A stretch of 64,000 nucleotides of DNA from a virus (lineage: Duplodnaviria; Caudoviricetes). A model generated the notes under the pieces. That model searched no databases. It was not told where the DNA came from and worked only from the letters and a program-made list of their open reading frames with translations. A program made the position numbers and the translations under genes. Each line of letters opens with the position of its first letter. The stretch's first letter is position 1. Below are positions 4,323 through 46,709 of this stretch, in pieces. The stretch covers positions 1-64,000 of IMG/VR virus record IMGVR_UViG_2873737359_000001; one strand, 5' to 3'.

Positions 4323-4379
4323 GTTCTTGTCCTCCTTATCATAACAACACGCCGGAACAATTCCCACTGTTCCGGGTAG

Positions 4380-4451
4380 CACACCTGAAGGGAATCGAAC
4401 CCCCGCACATGGTACCGGAAACCACTGCTCTATCCACTGAGCTACAGGTGC
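4380..4451 (-). tRNA. tRNA-Arg(CCG)
   Basis: Full cloverleaf GCACCTG...CAGGTGT-G, anticodon loop TTCCGGT, GGTTCGATTCC T arm; CCA not encoded. Confidence 0.95.
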
Positions 4452-4801: not shown

Positions 4802-6004
4802 ATGACTGCAAGACCAAGAAGAGAAAAAGGAACCGGATCGTGGGACACTGTAACAAAAAATGGAATCACATACTATCGATATAGAAAGAAATATGATGGG
4901 ATGACTTCTCGCAAAGAATTTGTTGCTCGGACGAAGGCTGATGTAAAACATAAGATCAAAGAATATGAATCTAAGACGATGCATATAACAAATAGAGATT
5001 ATCTCAAAATGACTCTTGGAGAATGCGTCGATATTGTACTTGAATCGCTTGAATCTACCTTTAAGACCAATAATTACGCCACATTACAGTCTACAAATAG
5101 ATGCTATATAAAAACAAATAAAATAGCTGATGTACAGATGGGTTCTGTAGATCCAGTGCTCATACAGAATTACTATACAGAACTGTCAAAGAAATATTCC
5201 GAAAGCACTGTAAAGAAGACTAGGACATTATTTAATACTGTTTTTGACTATTTAGTATCTATTAATATAATGACCGCTAATCCTGCTAAAGGTATTAAGA
5301 TGCCACATAAAACAAATTATGCAGTACAGAAAAAAGAACATTCGTTCTTGTCATTAGAACAAGCTGAAAAATTTAAAGAAGCTGCATTAATGAAAGCAGA
5401 CGAGACTATAGCAGGTGTTAAGACAGGTGATTATATTTATGGAAGAAACGCAAGATTTTGTCTGATTGTATTATATACCGGAATGAGAATTGGAGAAGCT
5501 TATGCACTAACGTGGGACGATGTGAATTTTAAACGCAATGTTATCCGGATCAACAAATCTATGGAACGTATAAAGATTAATGGAAAATATCAATGGATTA
5601 CAGATACGCCTAAAAAGCCAGCTTCTATTCGAGTTATTCCGATGTCAAACATTGCAAAGGAACAATTATTATATTTAAAGATGATCTCTCCTGGTAACGC
5701 CGCAAAAGGAACAGACACTATCTTTGTGACTGATAGCAACATTCCTCCATCACAATCTTCTCTTACTAGAACGTTAAAAGCTATATTGACAAGAGCCGAA
5801 ATCAATCCTAATGGATTTGGGTTGCATGATCTGCGACATTCGTTTGGTTCTATGCTATTGGAAAAAGGTTGGGAAACAAATCATCCTGTAGATATAAAAG
5901 TCATATCCGAATTACTTGGTCATGATGATGTGTCTACAACTTATAACACATATTTGCACATCATAAATAGTCATAAATCAGAGGTTGTGAATCTCTTAAT
6001 ATAA
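4802..6004 (+). CDS. int: Tyrosine integrase
   Basis: TGMRIGE, HDLRH, LGH, TY catalytic residues; N-terminal arm-binding domain. Confidence 0.95.
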   Translation: MTARPRREKGTGSWDTVTKNGITYYRYRKKYDGMTSRKEFVARTKADVKHKIKEYESKTMHITNRDYLKMTLGECVDIVLESLESTFKTNNYATLQSTNRCYIKTNKIADVQMGSVDPVLIQNYYTELSKKYSESTVKKTRTLFNTVFDYLVSINIMTANPAKGIKMPHKTNYAVQKKEHSFLSLEQAEKFKEAALMKADETIAGVKTGDYIYGRNARFCLIVLYTGMRIGEAYALTWDDVNFKRNVIRINKSMERIKINGKYQWITDTPKKPASIRVIPMSNIAKEQLLYLKMISPGNAAKGTDTIFVTDSNIPPSQSSLTRTLKAILTRAEINPNGFGLHDLRHSFGSMLLEKGWETNHPVDIKVISELLGHDDVSTTYNTYLHIINSHKSEVVNLLI

Positions 6005-6011
6005 CAAATTA

Positions 6012-6047
6012 GGGAGCTATATCATTACGATATAACTCCCATTTTTT
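6012..6047. terminator. Terminator between int and xis
   Basis: GGGAGCTATATC/GATATAACTCCC hairpin plus T run. Confidence 0.7.
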
Positions 6048-6049
6048 AC

Positions 6050-6262
6050 TTATAAAAATATTGTTTTACGCATATTGTCAGATAACCATTTTAGGTATTT
6101 GTTTTTTGGAATTCGATATGTATTGCCTATCTTAATTTTAGGGAAATTACTTAAATGTATTAATTGGTATGTTTTATTACGCCCAATTTTTAAATGCTTC
6201 ATGATATCTTCTGGAGTGATAAATTCATCATTAAATTTATTATTATTTACTTCACCTTCCAT
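6050..6262 (-). CDS. Excisionase-like HTH protein (start uncertain)
   Basis: ITPEDIMKHLKIGRNKTYQLI...FPKIKIG..YRIP pattern; convergent with int. Confidence 0.8.
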   Translation of the reverse strand: MEGEVNNNKFNDEFITPEDIMKHLKIGRNKTYQLIHLSNFPKIKIGNTYRIPKNKYLKWLSDNMRKTIFL

Positions 6263-6489
6263 GGCTCCAACCCCCATTCGAATTCCTGCTGCCGCTGTGG
6301 ATCATCACTATTCAAGATAAAATCTACTTCGCAAGGTAATCCCATAGACAGAACTCCGAGAATAGATTTTGCATCAATAATATATCTGCCATGTACGCAA
6401 TCAACATCACAATCTCTGAATCCATTCATGATATTAACAATGGCATTTGCCGCAGATGAATTTTCAATTCTTACTTTTATAGTTTTCAT
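6247..6489 (-). CDS. HPr-family phosphocarrier-like protein (no His15)
   Basis: GRYIIDAKSILGVLSM Ser46 signature. Confidence 0.8.
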   Translation of the reverse strand: MKTIKVRIENSSAANAIVNIMNGFRDCDVDCVHGRYIIDAKSILGVLSMGLPCEVDFILNSDDPQRQQEFEWGLEPWKVK

Positions 6490-6703
6490 ATATATATCAA
6501 CTCCTATTAATTATTTCAGATTAAGATGTTATTATGTGTTATAGAATAATACTTCTATCCGTGTATTATTCTATAGTGTGTTACGGAAACTTTGAATTTA
6601 TTTACTATCTCATTTCAAAGTTGGCCTCTTATTCTAAAAAAAACACACTTGTACTACTTATACTATACTGAAGAAATAAGAGGCTTAGATCTAAAAATTT
6701 TAG

Positions 6704-7625: not shown

Positions 7626-7775
7626 TTATTTTAATTTTTTCATATCCGCCTCAAGCAACCTTATAACGTAATCTTTCATTGTTATGCCACGTAATGCAGC
7701 AAGCATCTTGATCTGTCTATGAAGATCTGCATCAACTTCGATGGACATTCTTACTGTCTTATCATTTTCAGTCAT
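7626..7775 (-). CDS. 49-aa ribbon-helix-helix DNA-binding protein (missing from ORF track)
   Basis: MTENDKTVRMSIEVDADLHRQIKMLAALRGITMKDYVIRLLEADMKKLK; overlaps the upstream stop. Confidence 0.75.
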   Translation of the reverse strand: MTENDKTVRMSIEVDADLHRQIKMLAALRGITMKDYVIRLLEADMKKLK

Positions 7776-8499
7776 GATTTTCTTTCTCCTTATCTTTCCT
7801 CCACTTTTCTAGTTCTTTATCAAGATACTTTATATATTTATCCCAAGTGCCAGAATAATGAATAAAATCCTTGCCTTTTAGCATAGACTTACGCATTTCT
7901 ACTTTTACATCTTTTGACCTATATTGCTTGCTCTTAGAGAGTATATTTTTAATAAACCGTCTCGTAATCTGTGGAACGATCAAGATATCCTCTTGAGCAA
8001 TATCCTTTATCAAATCTGTATACGCTGCTAAATCATCGGCAGGTATCATGTAATCAGACTTAGGAAGGTTCTTAGTTGAAAACGGTGATATGCCTGCCCC
8101 GCTTGTCTGTGGTTTAAGATATTCCGCTATCAGCTCTATATTCTTTGAATGAAATCTGAATTCTACTTCTTCATCATTCTCCATAATATATCTAATGGTT
8201 CCTTCTTTTAATAAAGCATCATAAAGTGGTTTATAATTTATACCTATAGTTGTAATATCAAAATTGCATAATCTCTGTCCTAACGCTTTAAGAATGTTGT
8301 GCCCCCGGCCAATCGAAGGAATATACGCTACCAGAACGCCATGTCCATAATGATATATCTGGCAGCCTAAAGCACATTTAATATAAACATCATCAGAATC
8401 AATTAATCCATTCCAATCTCTAGGGAAATCATTGGTATTCTGATCGATATGTGCTTTTAATCTGTATATTCCTTTATATCTCATAAGATAATTTGCCAA
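7768..8499 (-). CDS. Hypothetical phage protein
   Basis: 243-aa ORF in operon. Confidence 0.75.
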   Translation of the reverse strand: MANYLMRYKGIYRLKAHIDQNTNDFPRDWNGLIDSDDVYIKCALGCQIYHYGHGVLVAYIPSIGRGHNILKALGQRLCNFDITTIGINYKPLYDALLKEGTIRYIMENDEEVEFRFHSKNIELIAEYLKPQTSGAGISPFSTKNLPKSDYMIPADDLAAYTDLIKDIAQEDILIVPQITRRFIKNILSKSKQYRSKDVKVEMRKSMLKGKDFIHYSGTWDKYIKYLDKELEKWRKDKEKENHD

Positions 8500-8513: not shown

Positions 8514-9287
8514 CTATACATACTGCATATCAGCGTAAGCATCGTCATAATATCCATCTACAAGATATTTTGGCATTAATCTTGATTTAAACAGGTTCTT
8601 TTCATGAAGCTGTTTAATCTTTTTAGCAATTTCTGGATCATCACATTTCCCAGTATAAATATATTTATCTAATACAGCATATGGGAAACCAAGATTATCT
8701 TCGTCTGTTTTACCACACAGTCCATCAATCGGAATTTTCTCAATAAATTCCTCTGGCAATCCAAGCACATATCCAATTGCTTTTACTTCTGTGACAAGCA
8801 TATATCCAATAGGACTGAAATCTCCTGCAGAGTCGCCATATCTGGTTTCATATCCGACAAATGACTCTGAATAATTGCAGGTATTTGCTACTCTGCCATT
8901 CATAGACTGTGATACAGCGTATAATGTTGACATTCTAATACGAGCCGGGAGATTCATTCTTGTCTGATCACTGATTTCAATACCAGAAGTCTCAAGTCTG
9001 GACAATACACTTTTTACCGTATCTCCAATATTTACTTCATATCTTTTAATATCAAGATAATCACAAACCTTTCTAGCCACATCAATATCAGACTGAATTC
9101 CCTGCGGCATAAGTACGCCAATAACTCTATCCTTACCAAGAGCTTCTACGCATAACGCTGCTACAATAGTAGAGTCTTTTCCACCGGAAATTCCTACGAT
9201 TGCATTGCAATCTGGCCCATTCTTTTCAAAAAAGTTTCTAATCCATGTTACGCATCTATCCTTATGTTTCTTTGCATCAAAAGCCAT
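8514..9287 (-). CDS. nadE: NH3-dependent NAD+ synthetase
   Basis: GISGGKDS PP-loop, N..ARIRM, T.N.SE..VGY.T.YGD, TDEDNLG. Confidence 0.95.
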   Translation of the reverse strand: MAFDAKKHKDRCVTWIRNFFEKNGPDCNAIVGISGGKDSTIVAALCVEALGKDRVIGVLMPQGIQSDIDVARKVCDYLDIKRYEVNIGDTVKSVLSRLETSGIEISDQTRMNLPARIRMSTLYAVSQSMNGRVANTCNYSESFVGYETRYGDSAGDFSPIGYMLVTEVKAIGYVLGLPEEFIEKIPIDGLCGKTDEDNLGFPYAVLDKYIYTGKCDDPEIAKKIKQLHEKNLFKSRLMPKYLVDGYYDDAYADMQYV

Positions 9288-9648
9288 AATTCTGTCCTCC
9301 TATAGATACAATTCGTGATTTGCTTGTACCATCATCATATTCTCTAGTGACTAATGTACCCTGTATCATTTCTCCAACTCTTCCATGATATTTACGATAC
9401 ACAGATTCGCTGTTAAATGAGTAATCAACTCCATCATATTCAACTGTAATTTCATATTCAGCAGGTTTGTTTTTCATGATCGGTCTACCGTCCGAATAAC
9501 CTGCTACTCTTATTGTTCCTGGATCATAATATTCATTAACAATTTTAACCTTTACTGGTTCTGTAGTTTCCTTAATACATTTTGTACATCCTGTTAATGT
9601 AGACAACCCAATCAATAAACTTGCTGCAACAATTCCTATCTTACGCAT
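9277..9648 (-). CDS. Putative lipoprotein
   Basis: Signal peptide ending LTGC. Confidence 0.7.
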   Translation of the reverse strand: MRKIGIVAASLLIGLSTLTGCTKCIKETTEPVKVKIVNEYYDPGTIRVAGYSDGRPIMKNKPAEYEITVEYDGVDYSFNSESVYRKYHGRVGEMIQGTLVTREYDDGTSKSRIVSIGGQNYGF

Positions 9649-9843
9649 TTAAATATCCTCACAAACTACTTCAATTGATTCAAATCCTTCATTGTCAATA
9701 AACGCATCTGAAATCTGATCCATAACCATTTTTTCCACAATGTTTTTGTCCGTCAACGTTGCTGCTAATTCTGGATCATCTGAGAAATCATACTCTACTG
9801 TAACTGTAATAATTCTTTTTGTAGATAAATCCATTATTTCCAC
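9649..9843 (-). CDS. Small acidic hypothetical protein
   Basis: Tightly packed ORF. Confidence 0.6.
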   Translation of the reverse strand: MEIMDLSTKRIITVTVEYDFSDDPELAATLTDKNIVEKMVMDQISDAFIDNEGFESIEVVCEDI

Positions 9844-10382
9844 TGCCTCCTTCTTTTACTTTGATCTTTCCAACATTTTGACTTCTTTCTATAATTATCA
9901 AACGCCCAAGGAGCAATGATCCTTTTCGGTTCATTAAGATAAATACCATATTCATTTGCAGCTTCTTTTATTTCATCTGGAACAATACTTCTTCTTCGTT
10001 CTTGAACATTACTTACATGTCTTCTTATCTGATAAGCATAATGACTATAATGACGCATTTTATGCTTTCTATACGCTTTTGTTAAGTCATCAAAAGATCT
10101 AATATTTCCAGAATCATCAACTATTAAAAATCTTCTTCTACAATCTATATATTTCTTATTAAAACATCTATTATCGTATTCAAATGAATTGTGAAACTTT
10201 ACAGATCGTATAAAAAATATATTATATAACTTTACATAATTGCGAAAATATGTATATAAATCTTTCGCCCCACTTACATAACCAAGATACTCCCATGGAA
10301 GCCATTTATAAGTAGTCATTTCATTCCATAAATCAAAACTAATAATTTTTATGTGCTGTATATAAATATGGTATTTTCTCAT
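9834..10382 (-). CDS. Basic hypothetical protein
   Basis: 182-aa ORF ending WKDQSKRRRQWK. Confidence 0.65.
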   Translation of the reverse strand: MRKYHIYIQHIKIISFDLWNEMTTYKWLPWEYLGYVSGAKDLYTYFRNYVKLYNIFFIRSVKFHNSFEYDNRCFNKKYIDCRRRFLIVDDSGNIRSFDDLTKAYRKHKMRHYSHYAYQIRRHVSNVQERRRSIVPDEIKEAANEYGIYLNEPKRIIAPWAFDNYRKKSKCWKDQSKRRRQWK

Positions 10383-10384
10383 AC

Positions 10385-10621
10385 TTATTTCCTCTTGTTA
10401 TTAAGTCTAATATGCTTTTTAAGCTCATTGATTCTTAAAGCTTGTAATAAAATAATGATCCAAGCCAAACAACAATCTATGAATATGGTTCTATTTGGTG
10501 CAACACGTATAAAATAACATGCTGTATTCATTATAATAGAAATTGTGCCAACTATATAAAATAGCCAATCTGTCCAATCTCCATATTTGCGGAAAAATTT
10601 ACGAATCTTATTATGTTTCAT
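10385..10621 (-). CDS. Small two-TM membrane protein
   Basis: Two hydrophobic segments. Confidence 0.6.
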   Translation of the reverse strand: MKHNKIRKFFRKYGDWTDWLFYIVGTISIIMNTACYFIRVAPNRTIFIDCCLAWIIILLQALRINELKKHIRLNNKRK

Positions 10622-11124
10622 CACTCTTCGTACCTCCATAGTTCTACATTATAATCTTCGAGTTCTCTCTTAATGATCGGATATATATCATTCTCCCAAT
10701 CTGCTCCGCCTCTGCCGCAGCCAATCTTATATGGAAGTGCTACTGTCGTATTACGAAGCTCGTCACATTCTTCAACCCATGCAGGCCAATTAGCTTTGAA
10801 TCTTCTTAAACATTCTACAAAGGCACCCAAATCTGTGTATTGTTTGCCATCATAACCATATTTATCCTGAGCGAACATTGATACTACACATTGAGATTCG
10901 CCATGATTTGTCCACCAATAATAATCATTCAAACCAAGCAGCGAAAATCCGGCTTTTGTAACATTGTCATACATTAAATAATAATGCTGGAACAATCCAT
11001 CTTCATATTGTCTTAATGTCTTCGCGACGCCAGAACCCATTACTCCCTGACAATTAACTTGATGTAAAATAAAATCAGTTTTGGCATCCAAAATATTACC
11101 ATTAATGATTTTTATATTGCTCAA
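10621..11124 (-). CDS. Macrodomain protein (Poa1p/TARG1-like ADP-ribose processing)
   Basis: GNILD, HQVNC.GVMGSGVA, P.KIGCGRGG.DW. Confidence 0.9.
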   Translation of the reverse strand: MSNIKIINGNILDAKTDFILHQVNCQGVMGSGVAKTLRQYEDGLFQHYYLMYDNVTKAGFSLLGLNDYYWWTNHGESQCVVSMFAQDKYGYDGKQYTDLGAFVECLRRFKANWPAWVEECDELRNTTVALPYKIGCGRGGADWENDIYPIIKRELEDYNVELWRYEE

Positions 11125-11893
11125 AAGTAAATCCTCCCATTACACACCATTTATTCACGAACATCGTGTACCATTCAACCCATTCCTTATTCACAGTATC
11201 TGGAAGATCGGTGTTCTCTTTGTCATATTTAAATCTTTCTTCTAACTGGTTAATTAAATCATAATAAATAGATATAATTTTACCATTGTCAGTTAAGAAT
11301 TGTCCGTTGCGAATATCCATAAGAAGCGAATGCTCATCTTCACGATATGTCACAATTTTTTTATTTTCCAGTACATCAAAGGCCATATAATACAACCGGA
11401 TTGGATGAACCATATACTTCGCAAGTTTATCCTTGTCAATAAATACCTTTTCAAGATCGAGCATTTTTTTGCTCTTTTCAATATATCCGCCAAATGAATA
11501 CGCCGCTTTTCTACAGAGAATCTCATCTGCATTATTTTTTAAAATATCAAAAAATATATGTTTATATAAATAATGCTCCGGTTTTAATCCAAGAATTTCA
11601 ATGACTGCAGGATTATTGCTACAAAGCAGTTTAATCATTTTCTTAAATGTATATATAGTCGTGTCAGTTTCATGGCTGACTACTTGCTCAATATCCTGTT
11701 CTAATAAAATTTCTCTCTCAGTATTACGAGTAATGCCCCTTATATCCAGATCGCTACTAGCTGCATTAGTACCATAAGCATAGCTACCTCCTATGGCGAG
11801 AACCATAATATTCTCGCCAAGATGAGGGTTTATACGAAGAAATTCATATCTTTTATCAGTTTTAAGAGTTTGTTTAATTTCATTTAAAGTCAT
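11102..11893 (-). CDS. Pol-beta nucleotidyltransferase (RlaP/YcgL/nrdC.11-like)
   Basis: GSYAYG....SDLDIRG, NP..IE.L. Confidence 0.85.
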   Translation of the reverse strand: MTLNEIKQTLKTDKRYEFLRINPHLGENIMVLAIGGSYAYGTNAASSDLDIRGITRNTEREILLEQDIEQVVSHETDTTIYTFKKMIKLLCSNNPAVIEILGLKPEHYLYKHIFFDILKNNADEILCRKAAYSFGGYIEKSKKMLDLEKVFIDKDKLAKYMVHPIRLYYMAFDVLENKKIVTYREDEHSLLMDIRNGQFLTDNGKIISIYYDLINQLEERFKYDKENTDLPDTVNKEWVEWYTMFVNKWCVMGGFTFEQYKNH

Positions 11894-13365
11894 TATATTT
11901 CTCCATTCAATCTGTTACGGATTTCCTCAAATGTATCCCTATGAATAATTCTGCCATCCTTAAATACAGTTTTAAGTTCGCTATTCTGTCTAATCCCTTC
12001 AAGTCCATCAATGCAATAAAGATCGTTATCATAGTAATCTCTCTGTACTACACAGCAGCCTTTATGAGATTTCTTAAGCTTGCTAGTATCTGTTTTAGGA
12101 TCTTTGTAGATCATAATTGGTTTACCATTTACTTCGCCATATGTAGCCTTCATAGCAATTCCAAAAGTGTCTCTGGTTACAACAACCATACGACCATCAT
12201 CTTCGACAATAGCCGAGAAACAAAATGCACCTACGCCAAATACAATATTGTTCGCTGCAAAGCCTAAATCTCGTAATTTATTCCAAATCTCATTTACATG
12301 ATTGAGCGAACATCCGTCTCCATAAATAATACCAATATGAGGGTCGAGTACTTTATAACCTTTGTTATTTACTGTTCCTCCAAATGTATTCCAAAGTTTT
12401 TTAATTGTTTTTACAGCTATTTCTACCATGTCACCTGAATCCGGTCTGACAAGTAATTTCCCGTTATGATTCATGATTTCTTCTTTACAAGCCGGGAGAA
12501 TATTATCAATCATATTCCAATAATCATATGTATCAGATACCATACTAAAAGATGAATTCGGATATAACTCTGTAAGAAGTCTTTTGACAAATGTAATCTC
12601 GTCACCGTCAACTGCAAAATTTGAAGCCATAACTGAATGTTCTGTACTTACAGCCCCAATACCAAGACCCGTATTTTTACAATCAGCCTGATAATAAGTA
12701 TCAATGTAATCAATCGCCGGAATTGTGCTTGTCTTATTAAAGGAAAGTAACCAGGCGGCAGAACATCTCTGAGCTTCGTCCATACAAGACATACCTCTCA
12801 TACCAAAATCAGAAGCCGCCATTGCTGGATCTGCATCGTCTGTAGTTATTTTGTACCAATAATCTGCCATTTCTCTGTACATGTGACCGATTGTAGCATG
12901 GCAACATGGTTTCCAAAGTTCAACCTGCAGGATACATTCGATCCACTGTACAACCCATGCAAAATCTGGATGTGTATTACTGATCTCAATACATGGCACT
13001 GTCATTGGTACAAGTGTTCCTTCCGGGAGTGCTCTAATATGTAATGGAAGATACCCAAGACGATGCAATTTAATGATCGGATCCAAATCATAATCTTTTG
13101 ATGTAAGCTGAATATTCATAGTAGAAATATATGTACTAGCTACTAAAGATTCCGGAAGCTTAAAAAACCAAGTATTAAAATACTCAATCAAATACTCCTG
13201 AACAAATGCCTGGAGTCCAAAGAACACCATTTCCTTCTGATTTTTAAGCATTGATCTTCTCGGGGTCCAATAAGATACTAATTTAGTAAGCCCCGGAGGA
13301 AGCATTTTATTATGTACCTGTTTATATGTATCTGAAAGTAGAATTGCTAGTGTTTTTGTATTCAT
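11893..13365 (-). CDS. NAMPT-fold nicotinamide/nicotinate (ADP-/phospho)ribosyltransferase (Namat/NadV-like)
   Basis: DTYK..H, DFGMRG, STEHS, VSDTYD, RPDSG, IYGDG, RDTFG.AMKAT, KKS.KG. Confidence 0.92.
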   Translation of the reverse strand: MNTKTLAILLSDTYKQVHNKMLPPGLTKLVSYWTPRRSMLKNQKEMVFFGLQAFVQEYLIEYFNTWFFKLPESLVASTYISTMNIQLTSKDYDLDPIIKLHRLGYLPLHIRALPEGTLVPMTVPCIEISNTHPDFAWVVQWIECILQVELWKPCCHATIGHMYREMADYWYKITTDDADPAMAASDFGMRGMSCMDEAQRCSAAWLLSFNKTSTIPAIDYIDTYYQADCKNTGLGIGAVSTEHSVMASNFAVDGDEITFVKRLLTELYPNSSFSMVSDTYDYWNMIDNILPACKEEIMNHNGKLLVRPDSGDMVEIAVKTIKKLWNTFGGTVNNKGYKVLDPHIGIIYGDGCSLNHVNEIWNKLRDLGFAANNIVFGVGAFCFSAIVEDDGRMVVVTRDTFGIAMKATYGEVNGKPIMIYKDPKTDTSKLKKSHKGCCVVQRDYYDNDLYCIDGLEGIRQNSELKTVFKDGRIIHRDTFEEIRNRLNGEI

Positions 13366-13787
13366 TATTTTTCATTCTCCTCTACATTATTACTCTGATT
13401 GCCATTTACAATTTTATCAATTTGATCTGAGACATAATCGATTACATCTTTCCCAGTTTTTCCGATGGCTTGAATATTATCGGTTGTTAAATTGTCCAAA
13501 GCCAACATCGTATACATGGTATCTTTTGAAGGAGCAATGACAACTAACAACGCACTTATAATTAAACCAACAACAGATTTTTTGAAACATTTTTTAATAT
13601 TTAATATTTTATTTTGGTCTTTTTCATCATCTTCGTTATAATATGGACTATCTATGACTATTAAAAAATATATTGCATTTCCAATTCCGACAAGTATTGC
13701 AGCAGCTGCTGCTACTATAAAAATATTTTTTAATCCAGATAAAACATTAATTAAGTAAATTGACCACGGACTAATAATAGGATTCAT
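13365..13787 (-). CDS. Phage membrane protein
   Basis: MNPIISPW start, two TMs, PSK.T.Y motif; paralogue at 47547-47894. Confidence 0.75.
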   Translation of the reverse strand: MNPIISPWSIYLINVLSGLKNIFIVAAAAAILVGIGNAIYFLIVIDSPYYNEDDEKDQNKILNIKKCFKKSVVGLIISALLVVIAPSKDTMYTMLALDNLTTDNIQAIGKTGKDVIDYVSDQIDKIVNGNQSNNVEENEK

Positions 13788-13805
13788 AATTAAAATACCC
13801 CCGGA

Positions 13806-14618
13806 TCATTTTTTTCTAAACTCTTCAACCAGTTCAATCTTTGGACTTTCTGTATTTGTAAGAATACTATCTGTAGTATAAATCTTTTCAATAAGTCCGT
13901 TATTTTTAAGCAGCTCTCCATCGTAAATTGAATTTTCACAATGAGTAACATACAGATAAATGTTTGTTGCACCAAGTTCTTTGAGTTTCAATGCACTGTG
14001 ATAGAATGTTCCACCTTTGCTGCAGATATCATCAACAATAAGAATATCTTTACCTGATAGCTGATCAATTTCGCCAGATAAATCTAAACCTTTAATCTCT
14101 CCAGTTTCCCAATCTCTATTCTTAATGCCGAAGGCATATGGAAGATGCACTGCTGAAGAATATCTCTTCATAGATCCTGCGTCTGGATAAAACATCATGA
14201 GATTATCACTTGCAATCTTCTTAACAGCAGTTTCAATCATTCGATTCGGAGATTCTACATGTATTTTATTAAATAATGCGACAGATACATCAGAGTGAGG
14301 ATCTAAAACTTCTACCTTATCAAAATGTAACGAATTAATAGTCTGAGCGAAGTATTTTAAAGTGAATATCTCATTTTCTTTTTTAACTCGATCCATACGA
14401 GCATCTGGAATATAAGGCATGTATAAATAAGGCATTACTTTATGATCCCAACAGTATCGTGCAATATAAACTACTGCTGCGAATTCTTCCATTGAATCAA
14501 AAAACCATTCAATAACACTTCTATGCCATCCTCTAATAGATGATGGAATATTCTTAAATAAAAATGTTCCATCTGGATATTTATCAAGTTTGATTTCTAC
14601 GCCGTTTAATTTAATCAT
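13806..14618 (-). CDS. PRS-like pyrophosphokinase (Adps/ADPR-PP synthetase-like)
   Basis: YPDG, PY.P.ARMDR, LDPHS, PDAG, IVDDICSKGGT; ATG 14618 (MIKLNG). Confidence 0.9.
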   Translation of the reverse strand: MIKLNGVEIKLDKYPDGTFLFKNIPSSIRGWHRSVIEWFFDSMEEFAAVVYIARYCWDHKVMPYLYMPYIPDARMDRVKKENEIFTLKYFAQTINSLHFDKVEVLDPHSDVSVALFNKIHVESPNRMIETAVKKIASDNLMMFYPDAGSMKRYSSAVHLPYAFGIKNRDWETGEIKGLDLSGEIDQLSGKDILIVDDICSKGGTFYHSALKLKELGATNIYLYVTHCENSIYDGELLKNNGLIEKIYTTDSILTNTESPKIELVEEFRKK

Positions 14619-14634
14619 TCCTCTTTCCCTCTCT

Positions 14635-14919
14635 TTACCAAGTAATTTCATTGTTTTGGTTCGATATAGATTTGTTTGATTTATATCTTTCAGTATACAA
14701 TCTTTCAGTATACAAGTGTTCCAATTTCTCAAGTTCATCTTCAGTAAGATTTGCCTGCTGCATAATATCAAATATTTCACAAAGTAAATACGCCAGTTTT
14801 TGAAGATTTATTTCATATGGATAATCTGGATAATTATCTCCTAGCTCATGATGTAACATCAAATCTATACATTCTGGTCTTTGTGATAGTTTTATAATTC
14901 GTTCTCTAGTTTGACCCAA
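14635..14919 (-). CDS. Hypothetical protein
   Basis: 94-aa ORF filling the operon gap. Confidence 0.55.
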   Translation of the reverse strand: MGQTRERIIKLSQRPECIDLMLHHELGDNYPDYPYEINLQKLAYLLCEIFDIMQQANLTEDELEKLEHLYTERLYTERYKSNKSISNQNNEITW

Positions 14920-14920
14920 T

Positions 14921-16030
14921 TTAGTTCACCTCAAAATAAAAATACTTTACTTTCCAATCGTCTTTAAATGTATCACGAACAGATAAAGCTATCTTTCCAC
15001 ATTCATTCATATGCGTTATAGCTAAAGTTTTCTGGCACGGGAGTCCTGCAGTTTTTATATCTGCTTGACATCTTTCATGTAATTCTTTTACATTTAACTT
15101 CCCATATCTCAAAGTATCCTGATGTGGATTTGGAACATTGGTTAAATCTTCTATGTCCAGATTTATGTCCGGATTAATTTCTTCCTTATTACATTCAGTT
15201 GGGAACGCACCGGCTCCATGCCGCGTCATATATGTACGTGTCACATAACAAGCTTCTATATTAATTTCATCAGTCCAATTTACAGACTTTATAATTCTGG
15301 CAGGATTTTTAATACCAGTGTTAGATGGAGTAAGATGTGGATAATATTCAATATTATTTTGATCCAAAAGAAGCCCCTGCCCATTTTCAAATACTATGGT
15401 ATCGTATCCATTAAGTAATTGATCATTATTTACAAAATGTACATGTGACATCATAAAATCAAGATCTTCATAGTAATGATCTCGAAGCCCAGGATTTTTT
15501 ACGGGATGAAATAATTCTTCTTCCTGTTCAGATAACGTAATTCCCATGCTTTTGAACATATTCATATAATATGACCATGACAATGAATATGAATTAATAT
15601 GTTTTTTATATCGTTGAATTGTATTATAAATCCCCATTCCACAGCTTCCGTGTTTATTGTTACCACGACTTCGTTCAATAATTTGATTTGCCATCATATC
15701 AAGAGGATTTGTAATCATACATTTTCCATGAACGTACACATAAGGTTCCCATCCTAATTTCTTTAACTCTTCCCATTCTTCCCTAAATACCAGAGGATTT
15801 AAAATAAAATCCTCCGGTAAATAAGTATCTGCTCCGTTTAATGTTCCAGAGCCGAAATGATGAAAGACATGCCGGGTTCCGTCTGATTTTAATACTGTAT
15901 GTCCTCTCTGAGCACCGCCATTTGAACACACAACGATACAGTTATCTGCATTTTTAGTATAATAATCTGTTAATTTGCCCTTGCCCTCGTCACCAAAGTT
16001 TGCCCCGATGACAATTTTTATATCTTTCAT
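14921..16030 (-). CDS. Divergent adenylosuccinate synthetase (PurA)-like protein
   Basis: GANFGDEGKG, GG.Q.GHT, FE.GQG.LLD, YP.LT.S, Y.TRHGAG. Confidence 0.88.
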   Translation of the reverse strand: MKDIKIVIGANFGDEGKGKLTDYYTKNADNCIVVCSNGGAQRGHTVLKSDGTRHVFHHFGSGTLNGADTYLPEDFILNPLVFREEWEELKKLGWEPYVYVHGKCMITNPLDMMANQIIERSRGNNKHGSCGMGIYNTIQRYKKHINSYSLSWSYYMNMFKSMGITLSEQEEELFHPVKNPGLRDHYYEDLDFMMSHVHFVNNDQLLNGYDTIVFENGQGLLLDQNNIEYYPHLTPSNTGIKNPARIIKSVNWTDEINIEACYVTRTYMTRHGAGAFPTECNKEEINPDINLDIEDLTNVPNPHQDTLRYGKLNVKELHERCQADIKTAGLPCQKTLAITHMNECGKIALSVRDTFKDDWKVKYFYFEVN

Positions 16031-16039
16031 ATGTTCTCC

Positions 16040-16939
16040 TTACCAAACAATAGCTCCTGATTCATCTGTTTCTGCAGAAATTACAGTGGATGAGGCTACT
16101 ACAGGTTCATTATTTTCTGCAGCCGCAACTACAATCTTTACAATTTCATCTGCAATATTATCAAGACGATTAATGGTCCTAAAATGGTTATCATCAAGAT
16201 ACTCTGAGAAAGACTCAACTATTCCTTCCAGGTCATATTCATTACGATGATTTACATTGATATGATAAATATCAAATTTCTCAGATGTTTCCATATATAA
16301 ATCTTTAGTTTCTACATCTGCCTGAAGTGTATCGCCAGTTGTAATTCCTAATCCAGAACGGCGTCCTGATACTGGTAAGTACGGATTAAGACGTTCGTCT
16401 CCAATAGTAATAATTACGCCTTTTTTACCCCTATTCCAACAATCAAGTTTTGTATGACGAGATCCAAAATACCAAGCAGCAGTATAAGATTCATATGAGT
16501 TACCTCCGCCACCAAATTCAAAGTAAATTTTATCAAGCTGCTCTGCGATTCTAATATCTGATTCAAACTGAGAAGCCTGTATCGGATAACTATCATAAGC
16601 CAAATCTCCAATACCCATAATCATAAATTCTACATCTTTAATCTGACCATATAATTTTGTCATGATTTCATTAAGTCTTTTTGCAATTTCTACTGCGGTC
16701 TGCCCCATAGATCCGGTGACATCTAAAGCCAAAATAACCGGTAAAGTATTCGGATGTTCTTCATTATCGCAACATTCTCTAATAACACCTTTAGGATCGA
16801 GTGCTGCATCAATATTTTTTGCTTTAAACATTTCCTGGTTAGAATAGTTAGAAGTGATAATTCCTCTAGTATCAGTCTCGTATCCTTTTGATGTTGCATA
16901 ATTTACAAAACTTGCTGTTGTCCAACTTCCACATCCCAT
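16040..16939 (-). CDS. vWA-domain protein
   Basis: MIDAS DVTGSM, GGGGN..ESY, TIGDE. Confidence 0.88.
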   Translation of the reverse strand: MGCGSWTTASFVNYATSKGYETDTRGIITSNYSNQEMFKAKNIDAALDPKGVIRECCDNEEHPNTLPVILALDVTGSMGQTAVEIAKRLNEIMTKLYGQIKDVEFMIMGIGDLAYDSYPIQASQFESDIRIAEQLDKIYFEFGGGGNSYESYTAAWYFGSRHTKLDCWNRGKKGVIITIGDERLNPYLPVSGRRSGLGITTGDTLQADVETKDLYMETSEKFDIYHINVNHRNEYDLEGIVESFSEYLDDNHFRTINRLDNIADEIVKIVVAAAENNEPVVASSTVISAETDESGAIVW

Positions 16940-16941
16940 AA

Positions 16942-17553
16942 TTATTCGTCCTCCTCTACTTCATCATCTTCTACATCAGTATCATCCATACTGAAATCAA
17001 ACATGCCGTCAAACATATCTCCCATACTACCGTTCATCATCATAAATGGCATCATAGCGTTCATAGGATTATTGTCTGTTCCAGTTCCTGTACCAGCTAC
17101 TCCGTTCATCATCTGGGTCATCATCATATATTTGAATATTTTGTTTGCACTGTTCTTGTCTTTTCCAAGATTACTTCCAAACATAGACACGATTTTTCCA
17201 TAGAAATAAGTGTTTCCCATAAATACATGGCGCTCCGGCAAAATTGTTTCAACTGTAGAATCCTCATAATTGATTACAGTAATTTTTGTTTTATCTGCTT
17301 CAATAACGCATTTTGGTCTTCCATTTACAAGGATAATATCTCATTTAGCCACCTTATTTGTTGGAATAACGAAGAAGAAATTTTCATCTACTCCAGGAAA
17401 CACAAAATTACCACAGTTTGTGAGCTTACCGGATTTAACATTGTAACTCTTATATCCATTAGAAGTTTTTACAGCAATATTACCGCTCATGGATAACTTG
17501 CACATTCCGCTACCAATTTTTCCAAACATTCCATTCATAAAATTATTCATCAT
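16942..17553 (-). pseudogene. Phage protein with Met-rich tail, interrupted by one in-frame TGA
   Basis: Track ORFs 17341-17568 and 16942-17241 share a frame: NKVAK*DIILVNGRPK...; stop at 17341-17343. Confidence 0.8.
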
Positions 17554-17576
17554 TTTAATTTCCTCCATTGTTTAAT

Positions 17577-18131
17577 TTAATTTTTATTGATCACATTAAT
17601 TTGACAGCTCTCCATTACCTCAAGCGCTGCTTTATGCTTTACTGGTGTTGATCCGGCGCAACAACTAGCATCAACTGTAATTTCTACTTCTGGAAATTCA
17701 GTTTTTAAACACAAAGCATTTGTAATCACACAAATATCCGTACAAAGACCTATGATTTCTACTTCATAAATTGGCTTGCCAAGTTCAAACATGCCAAGCC
17801 ATGGCAGATAATCCCAATGATATCCAAATGTATCTTTATAACGGATTTTTCTTAAATCTGGAGATTCTTCTTCTACTGCCAACTCACTAATAATTTCCCA
17901 TCCCCATGTATTACGAATACAATGCTCCACAGGAAGTTTTCTACCTTCCTGAGTATTTAAGTAATTTACTTCGTGCGTATCTTTGGTAAAAATAACAAAA
18001 TCACCATTGTTTCTATACTCATTAATTTTTTTTACAATATTGGGGACTATGGCAATGGCTTCATCACTACCAAGACTTCCATAAACAAAGTCATTCTGAA
18101 CATCCACTACAACTAATATCTTCTTTGCCAT
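17577..18131 (-). CDS. pncA: Nicotinamidase (isochorismatase-family cysteine hydrolase)
   Basis: VVVDVQNDF..GSL, TKDTH, P.HC..NT.G, K.TF, GLCTDICV. Confidence 0.88.
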   Translation of the reverse strand: MAKKILVVVDVQNDFVYGSLGSDEAIAIVPNIVKKINEYRNNGDFVIFTKDTHEVNYLNTQEGRKLPVEHCIRNTWGWEIISELAVEEESPDLRKIRYKDTFGYHWDYLPWLGMFELGKPIYEVEIIGLCTDICVITNALCLKTEFPEVEITVDASCCAGSTPVKHKAALEVMESCQINVINKN

Positions 18132-42596: not shown

Positions 42597-42639
42597 GCTC
42601 CTTATACATTTACTTTATTTTCTATTGTAGCGCTACAAA

Positions 42640-42712
42640 TTGGCATAGACGGAATCGAACCGTCATTATATTGATCCATGAGTCAATTATTCTACCATTG
42701 AACTATATGCCA
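42640..42712 (-). tRNA. Atypical tRNA with 8-nt anticodon loop (CUCAUGGA)
   Basis: TGGCATA/TATGCCA acceptor, ATTGA/TCAAT stem, GACGG-TTCGATT-CCGTC T arm. Confidence 0.75.
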
Positions 42713-42767
42713 AACCATTACATATACAAATGAGTGCCTAATAGAGCTTATGCAAAATATCAGGCAA

Positions 42768-42841
42768 TGGAAATTCTGGGACTCGAACCCAGGACCGACC
42801 GGTTATGAGCCGGTTGCTCTAACCAACTGAGCTAAATTTCC
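42768..42841 (-). tRNA. tRNA(CAT), probably Ile2
   Basis: GGAAATTTAGCTCAGTTGGTTAGAGC...CTCATAA; body resembles Firmicutes tRNA-Ile2. Confidence 0.9.
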
Positions 42842-42911
42842 ATGCTCTGTATATGACACACTACTATGATATATCATATACAGGAAAACACTTATTATAA
42901 ATGCAGCCTAC

Positions 42912-43342
42912 GTTTATAGTTACCACAATCCTATCATTGCTAACAACACTGATCGGTTCGACCTCATATACTACCTAATTTCACCTCACTATAAACACGT
43001 TTATTCTTTCTATTCTTTTATAACTACATTAACAGCCGTCGCTGTTTTGATCCCCACTCACTTCCTCATCCTCGTTATAAGAATATAAGCTATAAAATCA
43101 ATAAGCTGCGTAATTGATATTTCCTTATATTCCAGATACGACTACACCAAACCATATTGTTTGCCTCACCATACTTTCTCACCCTCACCTCGTCATGTAT
43201 CAAGAATACTTCAGAAATATTTTCCTTTTATATGACTACACCAAACCATATTGTTTGCCTCACCATACTACCTCACCCTCGTCATATAAAAGATCATCTA
43301 TATAAATGTATGTGCTACCAAACCCTCTACCAACCTCGCACA
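42912..43342 (-). ncRNA. Array of five structured units (stem-GAGG...GUA-stem)
   Basis: Five different outer stems with the same flanking motif; units 43135-43201 and 43225-43292 share a ~36-nt exact repeat. Confidence 0.65.
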
Positions 43343-43523
43343 GAGCCATACCCAAAGTACAGGCTGTTCCCAACTTAGTTTCATCTCATTGTAAAATTGT
43401 AATAAAATATATTACATTTGTCTGAGACTATAATGATATGCTGATCACTGCTATCTTGATCTCAAGTAGGTTAACCTTCAGATCTAAATTAATCCGTGGC
43501 CTTTAGATATCTAAAGATCTGAA

Positions 43524-43605
43524 TACGGATAATGGGACTTGAACCCATATGAGTTTCCTCCGGAGAGTTTGAGTCTCCTGCGTCTGCCTATTTCGCCATA
43601 TCCGC
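43524..43605 (-). tRNA. tRNA-Leu(CAA)
   Basis: Class II cloverleaf, GGAGA-CTCAAAC-TCTCC, A73. Confidence 0.9.
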
Positions 43606-43627
43606 TTATGATGTCTGTTTTAAGACA

Positions 43628-44356
43628 TCATATTTCATTCCATTGATCATCTGGAATATTTTTAATTACAGATTTTTTACTTGGTAACTTATATTTTATA
43701 CACCATTTTCTAACTGAATTATCAGTTACGCCATACTCTTTGGCAATACTAACAAATGAATCTTTTCTTATCTTATTTTTTAAATCTTCTCTTGATATTG
43801 GCGGTTGTTTCAAAACCACTTTTGGCTTAACTTTCCCCTTCTTGTTTATTTTCTTATTTGCCTTTAAATGTTTTTTAGAAGATTTTCCTGCATAATTTGC
43901 TGTTTGCGAATGACAATTCGGACATAAAATTTGCAAATTTTCTAATTTATTATTTGAATGTTCTCCATCAATGTGGTGTAACACCAACGTAATGTCTTTT
44001 CCATTCCAATTAGAAATGCCACAAATTTCACACTTATATTCTTTTACACCTTCATTTACTAACATTTTCAATAATCTACTAGATTGATAATTTTTATATT
44101 TTCCATCCAATACATCATTCAAAGACGCTTTTGTTTTTTTATGCGTTTTCAAAGCGCATTCTCTATATAAATTAGAACGATTTTTAGAATTTTTAGTTGT
44201 GTCTAATCCATATTCTATGATTAGCTTTTTCAAGGTTTCTGGATTAGAACCATGTCCATTAAGTCCAACTTTTCTTAACAAGTCACAATACCCATTTGAA
44301 GTATCAAGTAAATACTGTAATTCGTCTGGAGTAAAATCATATAATATACTTGCCAA
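43628..44356 (-). CDS. HNH endonuclease within the tRNA cluster
   Basis: CEICG, LHHIDG...NN...NL..LCPNCH. Confidence 0.9.
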   Translation of the reverse strand: MASILYDFTPDELQYLLDTSNGYCDLLRKVGLNGHGSNPETLKKLIIEYGLDTTKNSKNRSNLYRECALKTHKKTKASLNDVLDGKYKNYQSSRLLKMLVNEGVKEYKCEICGISNWNGKDITLVLHHIDGEHSNNKLENLQILCPNCHSQTANYAGKSSKKHLKANKKINKKGKVKPKVVLKQPPISREDLKNKIRKDSFVSIAKEYGVTDNSVRKWCIKYKLPSKKSVIKNIPDDQWNEI

Positions 44357-44357
44357 A

Positions 44358-44440
44358 CTAGGGTGGTGGGATTCGAACCCACACGGAAATCTCCAATAGA
44401 GTCAAAGTCTATTATGTCTATCCAATTCCATCACACCCCA
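44358..44440 (-). tRNA. tRNA-Gln(TTG) with long variable arm
   Basis: ATAGA-CTTTGAC-TCTAT, variable arm TGGAGATTTCCG, U1-A72, G73. Confidence 0.8.
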
Positions 44441-44443
44441 ATG

Positions 44444-44824
44444 ATTATCCACCATTTACCAGCCTTGCAGATCACTTATGGTCAAATACAACTATACCAA
44501 TAACATTTGCCAAGGATTTGATAAAATTTTATTCTTTATTATTTACTCTTTTAACTTTGATCAAAAATAAACTTTGAATTTTAAGCTTTATTACTTGACC
44601 TTTACAACTTTAAGCTTTACAGTGCATTAAGTAATATTATTTATCCATAATATGTATTATTTATAATATATTCGAATTAAAAGTTCGACCATTATTTAAA
44701 TTTTCTACCACTGTAGACCTTTCGATTTTAGAGTAGAGAGCTTCTTTTTAGCTTTATATGAGACTATGCTCTCCTGAAAGTCTAATAAGTTGTAATTTAA
44801 AGTTTTCAGTAAACAATGGATAAT
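44444..44824 (-). ncRNA. ~380-nt structured RNA candidate with heptamer-periodic AAAG tract
   Basis: Terminal ATTATCCA/TGGATAAT helix, several nested helices, no ORF. Confidence 0.65.
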
Positions 44825-44841
44825 TCTAATTTATATCAAAA

Positions 44842-45483
44842 TCAATAATTGATTTCGATTTCCGTAATTGCGTTGCTCACAGAAAGTGCTGCATCAACCT
44901 CTGATTTAAAATTTGAGATTTCTTCTTCAAGAACATTGATCTTGTCATTTACCTTGATAGGATCGAGCAGGTCGTAGGACTGAGCAGTGATAAAATCGTT
45001 ACGAGTACGATCAAACGCTTCTGCATTTACCTTTGTGTCTTTTGCGCCATACAGACCGATGACATACTGATCTGCTTTCTTCTCAAGTTCATCTCCGTTC
45101 CTAGTTTTAATAACAGCCTGAGCATTGTTAAACTGCTGTTTCATCTTTCTTAAAAGTTCTTCTTTAAGATCCATGAAGTTGTTTTTCATATCAATGGCTT
45201 CTGCAACGGTATATTCAATTCCTGTAATTGTTACCTTTGTCCTAGCATTTGAAAGAACAACTGCCGTTTTAATCGCGTTTCTGCGTGCCATAAGATCTAC
45301 AACTTTATCGTAAGATCCAGTCATCATGTTAAGATACTCATCAACTTTAATTCCATTGATCTTTTCATTAGAATGTTTATTAGCTACACAGAATACAGCT
45401 TCACTAATTGCTAAATGAATTCTATCATCGAGAATCTTAAGTTCTGAAAGTGCTTTGTGTACTGTCATCTTTTCTGTTGTCAT
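44842..45483 (-). CDS. DIP1984/septicolysin-like helical protein
   Basis: T...AL.ELK.LD.RI start, D..LS.SNA.TEI end. Confidence 0.65.
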   Translation of the reverse strand: MTTEKMTVHKALSELKILDDRIHLAISEAVFCVANKHSNEKINGIKVDEYLNMMTGSYDKVVDLMARRNAIKTAVVLSNARTKVTITGIEYTVAEAIDMKNNFMDLKEELLRKMKQQFNNAQAVIKTRNGDELEKKADQYVIGLYGAKDTKVNAEAFDRTRNDFITAQSYDLLDPIKVNDKINVLEEEISNFKSEVDAALSVSNAITEIEINY

Positions 45484-45611
45484 AACGTTTCTCCTTATAA
45501 TCTTTAAATTTTAATATGTATAAATGCTGAAACCGAACTTCACATTTATTTAAGTTTTTTATCATAACCAATACTTACAAACTGATGTCATAATCATCTC
45601 GCTACCTCCGT

Positions 45612-46709
45612 TTATACTGCATAATGTAAAGCTTTGTCCTCACATCTAATTACCTCGATATGATCTACTCCAACTGCTGCCAGTTTCGTATCATCTTCGT
45701 CTGTAACATCGTCAGCTTTAACTTCTACATATTCGCCTGGAACATAATTAATTCCACGTTTAGTATCAAATACACAATCTGCATTTCTAAAACTAACATA
45801 TATACATCCATTATCAATGTATATATAATCTTCAAATTTTTCAGATTTATCAAACAAATCAAGATATTTAAATGTCTGATTAGTTCTACCATCCTTCATA
45901 TATGTATATATCGCATATTTTACAGATGATGTATTTACGATGTTCAAATCTTTAATTGCGTTTTCAAAATCACCAGAATGATTAATTTCAAAAGCAATCG
46001 CTCTTAAGCAATCATAATTAAGAGGAACTTTTTTAGAGAAGCTAATTACTTTGGTAATTTCACCATATTTTTCTTTTGGAAGCTTATCCTGCATGTATTC
46101 TGTAATATCATCTGTGTCTGGATAATCAAATCTAAAATGATAGTGGAATCTTCCTGGACGGTTCACTAAAAAGTCACTAAGATTTCTAAGCTCATTACAT
46201 GTGATAACGAATAATTTCTTTCCGTCATATAAACCATCAAATAAAGTAAGCAGTTCCGTCTGTGGATCCGCAGCCCCATCAGGTGCTTTAATTCCTCCAA
46301 ATGTTTTATCATATTCATCAAACATTACCATCACTTCCTGATTAATAGATGCAATAAAATCAGCAATACCAGGAATATAACTATCAACAATAAGAACTGG
46401 AATGTCTCTTTTAATAGCTTCGGTAGCAAGAATTTTTGCAAATAAAGATTTTCCAATTCCCTTATCTCCAGAAAGGATCACTCCTAAATTCTTATTAAAA
46501 TAAGGAAATGCATTAAGAACTTTGTTTGCCTTACTCATATGAATCCCATAGATTTTATTTTCTCTTACAACAATATCCGTGTGTTTATCAAGAAAAAATC
46601 CAGAGCTTTTTGAAAACGATACTGAATATGCTTGAGCCGGAAGTTTGTCAAATACTTCGAGTTCATCATTATAAGCTTGGTATGTAGTTCCAATTTTAAT
46701 TACTTTCAT
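45612..46709 (-). CDS. AAA+ ATPase
   Basis: GDKGIGKS, FDEYDK, NRPGRF. Confidence 0.9.
   Translation of the reverse strand: MKVIKIGTTYQAYNDELEVFDKLPAQAYSVSFSKSSGFFLDKHTDIVVRENKIYGIHMSKANKVLNAFPYFNKNLGVILSGDKGIGKSLFAKILATEAIKRDIPVLIVDSYIPGIADFIASINQEVMVMFDEYDKTFGGIKAPDGAADPQTELLTLFDGLYDGKKLFVITCNELRNLSDFLVNRPGRFHYHFRFDYPDTDDITEYMQDKLPKEKYGEITKVISFSKKVPLNYDCLRAIAFEINHSGDFENAIKDLNIVNTSSVKYAIYTYMKDGRTNQTFKYLDLFDKSEKFEDYIYIDNGCIYVSFRNADCVFDTKRGINYVPGEYVEVKADDVTDEDDTKLAAVGVDHIEVIRCEDKALHYAV

Follow-up and report, generated by a model that had tools for sequence, protein, structure and literature searches.

A prophage gene module predicted to rebuild NAD+ through nicotinate as a candidate deamidated version of NARP1

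A gene module in a prophage of a gut bacterium very probably rebuilds NAD+ through nicotinate, whichever ribosyl donor it uses. As judged from sequence comparison, it is probably a deamidated (nicotinate) form of NARP1, a pathway by which phages reconstitute NAD+; it would make nicotinic acid adenine dinucleotide (NaAD) directly and also include the macrodomain extension of the related NARP1-AP system. The module lies in a stretch of 64,000 nucleotides (the window; positions 1 to 64,000 of IMG/VR record IMGVR_UViG_2873737359_000001) that forms the left arm of a prophage of ~173 kb. All six genes named in the initial annotation are present on the minus strand at the positions given below, and profile and structure matches agree with the identities assigned to them: a nicotinamidase (PncA), an Adps-like kinase, a NAMPT-fold transferase, an RlaP-type nucleotidyltransferase, a macrodomain protein and an NAD+ synthetase (NadE).

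Depletion of NAD+ is among the commonest anti-phage strategies of bacteria (Thoeris, SIR2-type systems, aRES and others), and NARP1, NARP2 and NARP3 are the known phage answers to it.

The transferase and its rebuilt pocket

The transferase (11893..13365, minus strand) belongs to the Namat family and is distinguished by Ser213 and Lys211 in its pyridine pocket, from which we predict that it is a nicotinate ADP-ribose transferase. Its best matches among solved structures are those of Namat (9w5x/9w5w, E 2.7e-111; human NAMPT ~1e-52), and it is 41% identical to the solved Namat, which makes residue mapping unambiguous. Matches to the NCBIfam equivalogs of nicotinate phosphoribosyltransferase (NAPRTase, PncB) reach ~1e-5 (3e-5), far under the cut-offs. 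The HMMER alignment sets SFNKTSTIPA of the window protein over SFTGTDTIPA of the SPbetaL1 Namat (TGTDT motif) and places Ser213 at the position of Asp215, or Asp219 in human NAMPT. The replacement of the nicotinamide-selecting Asp by Ser, read by eye in the initial annotation, is therefore borne out, and Ser or Ala occupies this position across the clade to which the protein belongs. Characterised Namats have no Ser at this site (Asp215 in SPbetaL1, PMC12774641; GSDT in ICP1).

Asp215 hydrogen-bonds nicotinamide in crystal structures of the SPbetaL1 Namat, and D215A causes an 8-fold loss of activity (PMC12774641). A review table on human NAMPT (PMC4919578) gives a switch of substrate affinity for D219S, an inactive enzyme for D219A, and a block of inhibitor binding for H191R, G217R and A244M. 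When 59 family members were aligned (SPbetaL1 Namat numbering), four pocket changes emerged across the clade: His187 to Ser, Ala, Gly or Cys; Gly213 to Lys, Asn, Ser or Pro; Asp215 to Ser or Ala; and Ala242 to Ser. These sites coincide exactly with the four that are tabulated for the human mutants (H191, G217, D219 and A244). In the window protein, Asp is replaced by Ser213, Gly by Lys211 and Ala by Ser240, and the equivalent of His187 is also replaced; Lys211 could pair with a carboxylate. The aligned catalytic core is kept, including the stacking Phe189, Arg192, the catalytic His245, Arg306 and Asp308.

A search of 1.84 billion cluster representatives yielded 3594 relatives, and typing of the best 150 for the key pocket residue gave Asp in 94, Ala in 30 and Ser in 20. 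In a FastTree phylogeny of 144 representatives, 45 non-Asp proteins make up one side of a branch with a support of 100. An IQ-TREE phylogeny (LG+C20), rooted on the Nampts of KVP40-type phage and Aeromonas phage 44RR, also recovered the non-Asp clade (SH-aLRT 99) and grouped it with the SPbetaL1-type Namat (99), with the ICP1 Namat outside. Two isolated non-Asp representatives (P0147 and P0064) are placed within the Asp clade.

Many representatives of the Namat family (P0003, P0019, P0040, P0063, P0018 and others) have lengths of 570-1100 aa, and their matches to the query fall into two to four separate stretches, with recurrent breaks around query residues ~230-257 and ~317, a pattern suggestive of inteins or insertions of homing endonucleases in this gene family. 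When fusions were sought among the long cluster representatives, NadE was found only in cluster P0095; the N-terminal extension of P0018 consists of HNH and AP2 domains, and the others gave split NAPRTase matches that suggest inserted elements.

The Adps-like kinase

The Prs-fold protein (13806..14618, minus strand; phrog_619, 1e-71) is a predicted Adps-like ADP-ribose diphosphokinase. It shares 40% identity with SPbetaL1 Adps (E 2e-54), compared with an E-value of 7e-18 for the best canonical Prs structure; a search of the PDB with this protein returned canonical Prs structures only. Residues were therefore mapped through ICP1 Adps as given in the phage record, and UniProt F1D1Q1 of PMC13586617, the numbering of which fits the phage-record protein, was taken to be ICP1 Adps. 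Arg87, His121, Asp161, Lys185, Asp212 and Asp213 of ICP1 Adps are all kept in the window protein, and also in the host Prs. When the kinase tree was rooted on the host Prs, a very distant outgroup, 51 of the 54 kinase partners of non-Asp transferases came together as the sister group of the SPbetaL1-type Adps (support 98), with ICP1 Adps further out. The kinase and transferase trees agree in topology, thus indicating that both enzymes are bracketed by pairs reported as active NARP1. Both trees place the window proteins with Adps and Namat and not with Prs and Nampt, in line with the affinity proposed in the initial annotation.

PncA, NadE and the macrodomain protein

The first gene of the module encodes a PncA-type nicotinamidase (17577..18131, minus strand; PF00857, 5.5e-26). 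Comparison with its best solved relative, P. horikoshii PncA (1ilw, E 1.9e-14), showed that the triad Asp10, Lys94 and Cys133 and the metal site Asp52, His54 and His71 are all matched. The last gene encodes an NH3-dependent NAD+ synthetase, NadE (8514..9287, minus strand; PF02540, 1.2e-51), which scores 173.6 bits against TIGR00552 (cut-off 63.65). Among solved structures it is closest to P. horikoshii NadE (2e18, 1.4e-33), and its GISGGKDS is aligned with the SGGxDS ATP loop.

The macrodomain protein (10621..11124, minus strand; phrog_335 'phosphatase', 7e-34) is, by similarity, a probable Adpp-type phosphatase of ADP-ribose-1''-phosphate. It matches the DarG macrodomain (NF048014, 2.7e-13), structure 5m31 (6.5e-7) and, weakly, yeast Poa1p (6lft, 0.011), and homologues in phages carry the annotation of Poa1p-like Appr-1''-p processing proteins. 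For Adpp, the phage ADP-ribose-1''-phosphate phosphatase, the reference protein is Poa1p (bioRxiv 10.64898/2026.01.28.702374).

The host has a PncA-like gene on contig C3, to which the phage PncA is 52% identical at the protein level, as well as a PncB-like gene, PF01467 candidates and a long NadE-like gene, which indicates that it salvages NAD through nicotinate. In such hosts, a nicotinamide-dependent Namat would presumably compete with the host PncA. The initial annotation suggested that a nicotinate route might withstand the drain of nicotinamide by host PncA and might hold a pool of NaAD that NADases cleave poorly.

Linkage of the genes across related loci

Related loci were drawn from IMG/VR with three queries (the window protein, a non-Asp alignment and an Asp-type alignment), and their open reading frames (ORFs) were scanned with hidden Markov models (HMMs) built for this analysis; a viral locus with at least 4 kb on both sides of the transferase gene was counted as full. 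All 97 full viral loci with a non-Asp transferase contain Adps, PncA and NadE genes together, and 83 contain a macrodomain gene. In contrast, the 54 full viral loci with an Asp- or Glu-type transferase all have Adps but neither PncA nor NadE, and a macrodomain gene was found in 6 of them. Even lenient thresholds and host-derived seeds detected neither PncA nor NadE near Asp/Glu-type transferases (0 of 81 loci). The co-occurrence with pncA and nadE, which the initial annotation had suggested as a check on Ser-type transferases, thus holds for the non-Asp transferases of all 97 full viral loci.

Bacterial genome contigs, mostly metagenome-assembled genomes (MAGs) of Lachnospiraceae and other Clostridia, also contain the module. 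Among 43 of these with a non-Asp transferase and full flanks, Adps was found in 41, PncA in 40, NadE in 39, all three in 37 and a macrodomain gene in 7. The genome-contig scan, which used a 6-sequence alignment, returned non-Asp transferases as best matches in 80 of 80 cases. Overall, more than 575 matching stretches were found in IMG/VR and 417 in GTDB genomes, and over 130 other loci have the same gene set, which shows that the grouping is not due to chance. In the phage collection, the only relative above ~42% identity is the metagenomic record MT835544.1, which is of the Ala type and has the same gene set.

At least two different orders of the module genes occur. Most frequent are PncA>Adps>Namat>NadE (40 loci), with no other tracked family between PncA and Adps, and the same order with a macrodomain gene before NadE (21 loci), while another lineage has Adps>Namat>Macro>NadE>PncA. 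In one cluster, P0095, the transferase is fused to NadE. The distant locus that bears the fusion, L065, has PncA ahead of it and a Prs-fold gene close by; at L066 a 139-aa ORF lies between the transferase and NadE genes. Locus L068, which carries transferase P0023, reads NrtR-WHD / Adps-like / PncA / transferase / NadE beside a chemotaxis receptor gene and looks bacterial-chromosomal.

At L065, genes for an RlaP-type nucleotidyltransferase, RNA_lig_T4_1 and RNA_ligase are interleaved with the NAD module (L065:44-2105 and 5325-6503). Together with the RlaP-like gene of the window, these neighbours may link NAD rebuilding to RNA repair. A lower-scoring match in the phage collection, the crAss-like Bacteroides phage Kolpuevirus 'frurule' (L293:7992-9713), was considered as a cultured carrier and rejected: its Namat has Glu (GSET), with Adps downstream and no PncA or NadE, which corresponds to an ordinary NARP1. 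GSET was also read in several IMG/VR loci, and classic NARP1 thus seems to tolerate Glu as an acidic variant.

Proposed pathway and its alternatives

A pathway is proposed that would start when a host NADase splits NAD+ into nicotinamide and ADP-ribose (ADPR) or ADPR-1''-phosphate. The macrodomain protein would convert ADPR-1''-phosphate into ADPR, and the Adps-like kinase would then use ATP to form ADP-ribose pyrophosphate (ADPR-PP). PncA would hydrolyse nicotinamide to nicotinate, which the Namat-family transferase, with its rebuilt pocket, would couple with ADPR-PP to give NaAD directly. Amidation of NaAD by NadE would complete the synthesis of NAD+, and an adenylyltransferase would not be required in this route. 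We infer each substrate and product of this scheme, as well as its role in counter-defence.

Four lines of evidence point to ADPR-PP as the donor: the phylogenetic bracketing of both enzymes, the enrichment of the macrodomain, the transferase::NadE fusion and the adenine clamp of basal clade members. The fusion favours ADPR-PP because NadE would act directly after the transferase only if the latter makes NaAD. The clamp of Namat consists of the SCH motif GSX-phi-X-phi-X-phi-TRD, with aromatics at positions 3 and 7, and the SCL stacking residue Arg40 (PMC12774641). In five basal members of the clade (P0023, P0054, P0032, P0021 and P0123), the Asp has already given way to Ala or Ser. The adenine clamp is nevertheless retained together with Arg40 in three (GSYTYQY[NV]TRD in P0023 and P0054, GSYSLQYVTRD in P0032), and P0021 and P0123 retain most of it, with an aromatic run that ends in QM and Lys at position 40.

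The initial annotation had also noted that no adenylyltransferase is visible. This holds for the entire prophage: a PF01467 search of the whole genome gave four matches, none of them within the prophage, and no NadD/NadM/NadR-type gene was thus found in its ~173 kb. The claim does not extend to the family as a rule. When four related complete viral contigs were searched with PF01467, two matches were obtained, namely a partial match in a 994-aa frame and an NMNAT-like gene directly after nadE. The latter encodes 191 aa (L009:16482-17057, and 26 other loci; PF01467, 7.6e-11), and its best NCBIfam matches are archaeal/NadM-type NMN (nicotinamide mononucleotide) adenylyltransferases, all below cut-off. 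It follows nadE in 20 of the 97 full viral non-Asp loci, mostly in the nearest relatives of the window; no homologue was found within the searched flanks of the other 77 or of all 43 full genome-contig loci, and this prophage has none. The RlaP-like nucleotidyltransferase was considered as a stand-in adenylyltransferase and rejected as a core part, as it occurs at varying positions in only 40 of the 97 loci.

Several observations weigh against the proposed scheme. The window transferase does not match the clamp: it reads GAFCFSA, followed by a 10-aa insert and TRD, Tyr396 is replaced, and Met stands at the position of the SCL Arg40. The derived sub-clade that includes it shares an insertion of 8-10 residues in the clamp helix. 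Double clamp mutants of the SPbetaL1 Namat lose the use of ADPR-PP and keep that of 5-phosphoribosyl pyrophosphate (PRPP) (PMC12774641). The acceptor of the kinase cannot be read from its sequence, since the ADPR-binding residues are common to Adps and host Prs, and an NMNAT-like gene after nadE would be consistent with a mononucleotide as intermediate. The role in counter-defence is carried over from NARP1, and apparently NrtR-regulated copies on chromosomes (L068) point to salvage as a housekeeping function in some bacteria. Finally, the association between non-Asp transferases and their partner genes (Fisher p 3e-42) amounts to about one event on the tree; the 2x2 count thus overstates independence, and the p-value reflects long-term retention and not many independent origins.

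Some of these observations would suit a phage-borne Preiss-Handler salvage via PRPP, in which PncA supplies nicotinate, the Prs-like enzyme makes PRPP, the transferase forms nicotinic acid mononucleotide, host NadD or the NMNAT-like gene product yields NaAD, and NadE finishes. The remodelled clamp with its Met and the NMNAT-like gene of close relatives fit such a route, as does the PRPP activity of the SPbetaL1 Namat, which is the only activity left in its clamp mutants; the missing step could moreover be borrowed from the host, which has PF01467 adenylyltransferase candidates and a PncB-like gene. We nevertheless consider this explanation unlikely. Both enzymes are nested in characterised Adps/Namat pairs, far from Prs and Nampt, and the basal members combine an intact clamp with the Ala/Ser switch, PncA and NadE. 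Most loci gave no NMNAT-like homologue in the searched flanks, the transferase::NadE fusion would couple non-consecutive enzymes, and the route has no role for an ADPR-1''-phosphate-type macrodomain, although a macrodomain is present in most of the viral loci.

It is also conceivable, but highly improbable, that the module is an ordinary NARP1 whose transferase still uses nicotinamide, with PncA and NadE as independent helpers that supply a separate nicotinate salvage, dependent on the host, or have a different function. The catalytic core beyond the four pocket residues is indeed intact (Phe, Arg, His, Arg and Asp), and stacking of several NAD routes is frequent in phages. However, Ala, the commonest residue in the non-Asp clade, is the substitution that inactivates human NAMPT and reduces the activity of the SPbetaL1 Namat; PncA would destroy the transferase's own substrate, and neither the strict linkage (97/97 versus 0/54) nor the NadE fusion would be explained if the genes were independent. 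A further explanation accepts the same chemistry but sees its purpose in a general NAD+ boost or homeostasis during infection or lysogeny, as an auxiliary metabolic module and not a counter-defence. The operon at L068, beside an NrtR-type regulator and a chemotaxis receptor gene on an apparent bacterial chromosome, would fit this, and the phage has NAD consumers of its own, such as an NAD-dependent ligase-like gene. We regard it as improbable given that the parent NARP1 and the macrodomain extension are shown counter-defences and that the macrodomain is much more frequent in this family than in classic NARP1; both purposes could be served at once.

The four-enzyme NaAD route put forward in the initial annotation is thus supported: all the computational checks proposed there were favourable to it and a transferase::NadE fusion exists, but with the clamp remodelled in the window protein and an NMNAT-like gene in its relatives, the choice between ADPR-PP and PRPP still rests on inference. 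On balance, we lean towards the view that the Ser/Ala transferases are nicotinate:ADPR-PP ADP-ribosyltransferases that form NaAD in one step. They would then define a fourth phage NAD+ route (PncA, Adps, transferase, NadE and often Adpp) that is widespread in large gut and rumen phages, chromosomal in Clostridia-class bacteria, and may suit hosts that salvage nicotinate.

Prophage setting and neighbouring genes

The prophage spans ~291.9-465 kb of contig C1. Past a tRNA-Arg gene (4379-4451) and the integrase gene (4802-6004), the GC content falls from the host value of ~0.45 to ~0.33 and stays low until contig position ~465 kb. In the direction of transcription, the module runs from PncA through a PurA/PurZ-like insert, the Adps-like gene, a gene for a 140-aa protein and the NAMPT-fold transferase gene to the RlaP-type nucleotidyltransferase gene, the macrodomain gene, four small unannotated genes and NadE. 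A 243-aa ORF (7768-8499) abuts nadE.

The insert between PncA and the Adps-like gene (14921..17568, minus strand) is lineage-specific and comprises a PurA/PurZ-like gene (14921-16030, minus strand) and three unannotated ORFs (16040-17568). The PurA/PurZ-like protein matches phrog_1211 '2-aminooxy adenylosuccinate synthetase' (5.9e-91) and PF00709 (3.4e-37), with a match to the NCBIfam PurZ (6e-12) far under the cut-off. Among related loci the insert is restricted to the sub-lineage of the window, and it is outside the core module.

Two accessory genes flank that of the transferase. The 140-aa protein (13365..13787, minus strand; phrog_3878, 5.5e-12) is encoded between the Adps-like and transferase genes. 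Homologues occupy the same position in many related loci, with HMM detection in 34 of the 97 full non-Asp viral loci. Its sole Pfam match is a weak one to MFS_1 (0.0074), and a paralogue with 37.5% identity is encoded at ~47571-47894 of the same prophage. The start of the RlaP/Pol-beta-type nucleotidyltransferase gene (11102..11893, minus strand; PF10127, 6.7e-13; phrog_388, 1.9e-35) overlaps the stop of the transferase gene; the count of 40 among the 97 non-Asp viral loci is for such a gene within 8 kb.

Elsewhere in the window, a 388-aa ORF (~57859-58557; PF01653, 4.4e-58) resembles NAD-dependent DNA ligases, in agreement with the phage-encoded ligase reported in the initial annotation. The host LigA (692 aa) is found at 1063-1758, just beyond the prophage. 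A phage tRNA cluster (42639-46812) contains two tRNA-Gln(ttg) genes and, according to ARAGORN, a tRNA with a four-base anticodon (catg).

Significance and comparison with known systems

If the assignment is true, nicotinate + ADPR-PP -> NaAD would be a new reaction in NAD biochemistry, and the family would illustrate how a NAMPT-fold enzyme can be shifted from the amide to the acid by four pocket residues. Literature searches gave no description of a nicotinate-type NARP1 variant, nor was this reaction found; the accounts of NARP1, NARP1-AP, NARP2, NARP3 and RyDEP do not include PncA, NadE, NaAD or a non-Asp Namat. Published NARP1 surveys are based on cultured-phage genomes, and the phage collection contains just one relative above ~42% identity, a metagenomic record, while the lower-scoring match examined there is of the acidic type, which may explain why the variant was missed. 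It appears to be abundant in gut phages and Firmicutes MAGs. Given its abundance in IMG/VR and GTDB, accounts of gut phages and their hosts that are limited to NARP1 and NARP2 would undercount NAD+ restoration.

NARP2 (Nampt and Nmnat) and NARP3 (PnuC and NadR; PMC13464706) resemble the window module as phage-encoded means of NAD+ restoration, and the NMNAT-like gene of some relatives adds to the likeness. The window, however, has no Nmnat, PnuC or NadR-type adenylyltransferase, and its transferase is far from phage Nampts; NARP3 was considered as a published precedent and set aside as unrelated. The module also resembles the Preiss-Handler pathway (PncA, PncB, NadD and NadE), in which a nicotinamidase acts first and an NAD synthetase last, nicotinate is the pyridine and NaAD the penultimate product. 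It differs in that its transferase is of the NAMPT/Namat type and not the PncB type, that the prophage lacks NadD, and that an Adps-family Prs-fold kinase is always present.

With NARP1-AP (Adps, Adpp and Namat; Vibrio phage Gary; bioRxiv 10.64898/2026.01.28.702374), the module has in common a Poa1p/DarG-like macrodomain gene in the operon near the transferase gene, a likeness drawn from the Poa1p/DarG-type matches. The macrodomain gene accompanies 83 of 97 loci here, compared with 15% of NARP1 operons as published, and PncA and NadE are added. There is likewise a resemblance to NARP1 itself (SPbetaL1, Bas63, ICP1 and Paenibacillus foliorum; bioRxiv 10.1101/2024.02.11.579819; PMC12774641; PMC13586617), with which the module shares adjacent, co-directional genes for a Prs-fold kinase and a NAMPT-fold transferase, both nested within characterised pairs, and a conserved transferase core. 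What sets it apart is Ser or Ala in place of the nicotinamide-binding Asp together with three further pocket changes, an adenine clamp that is remodelled in the sub-clade of the window, PncA and NadE, which are obligatory in this family and absent from Asp/Glu-type loci, and a predicted transferase product that is NaAD rather than NAD+.

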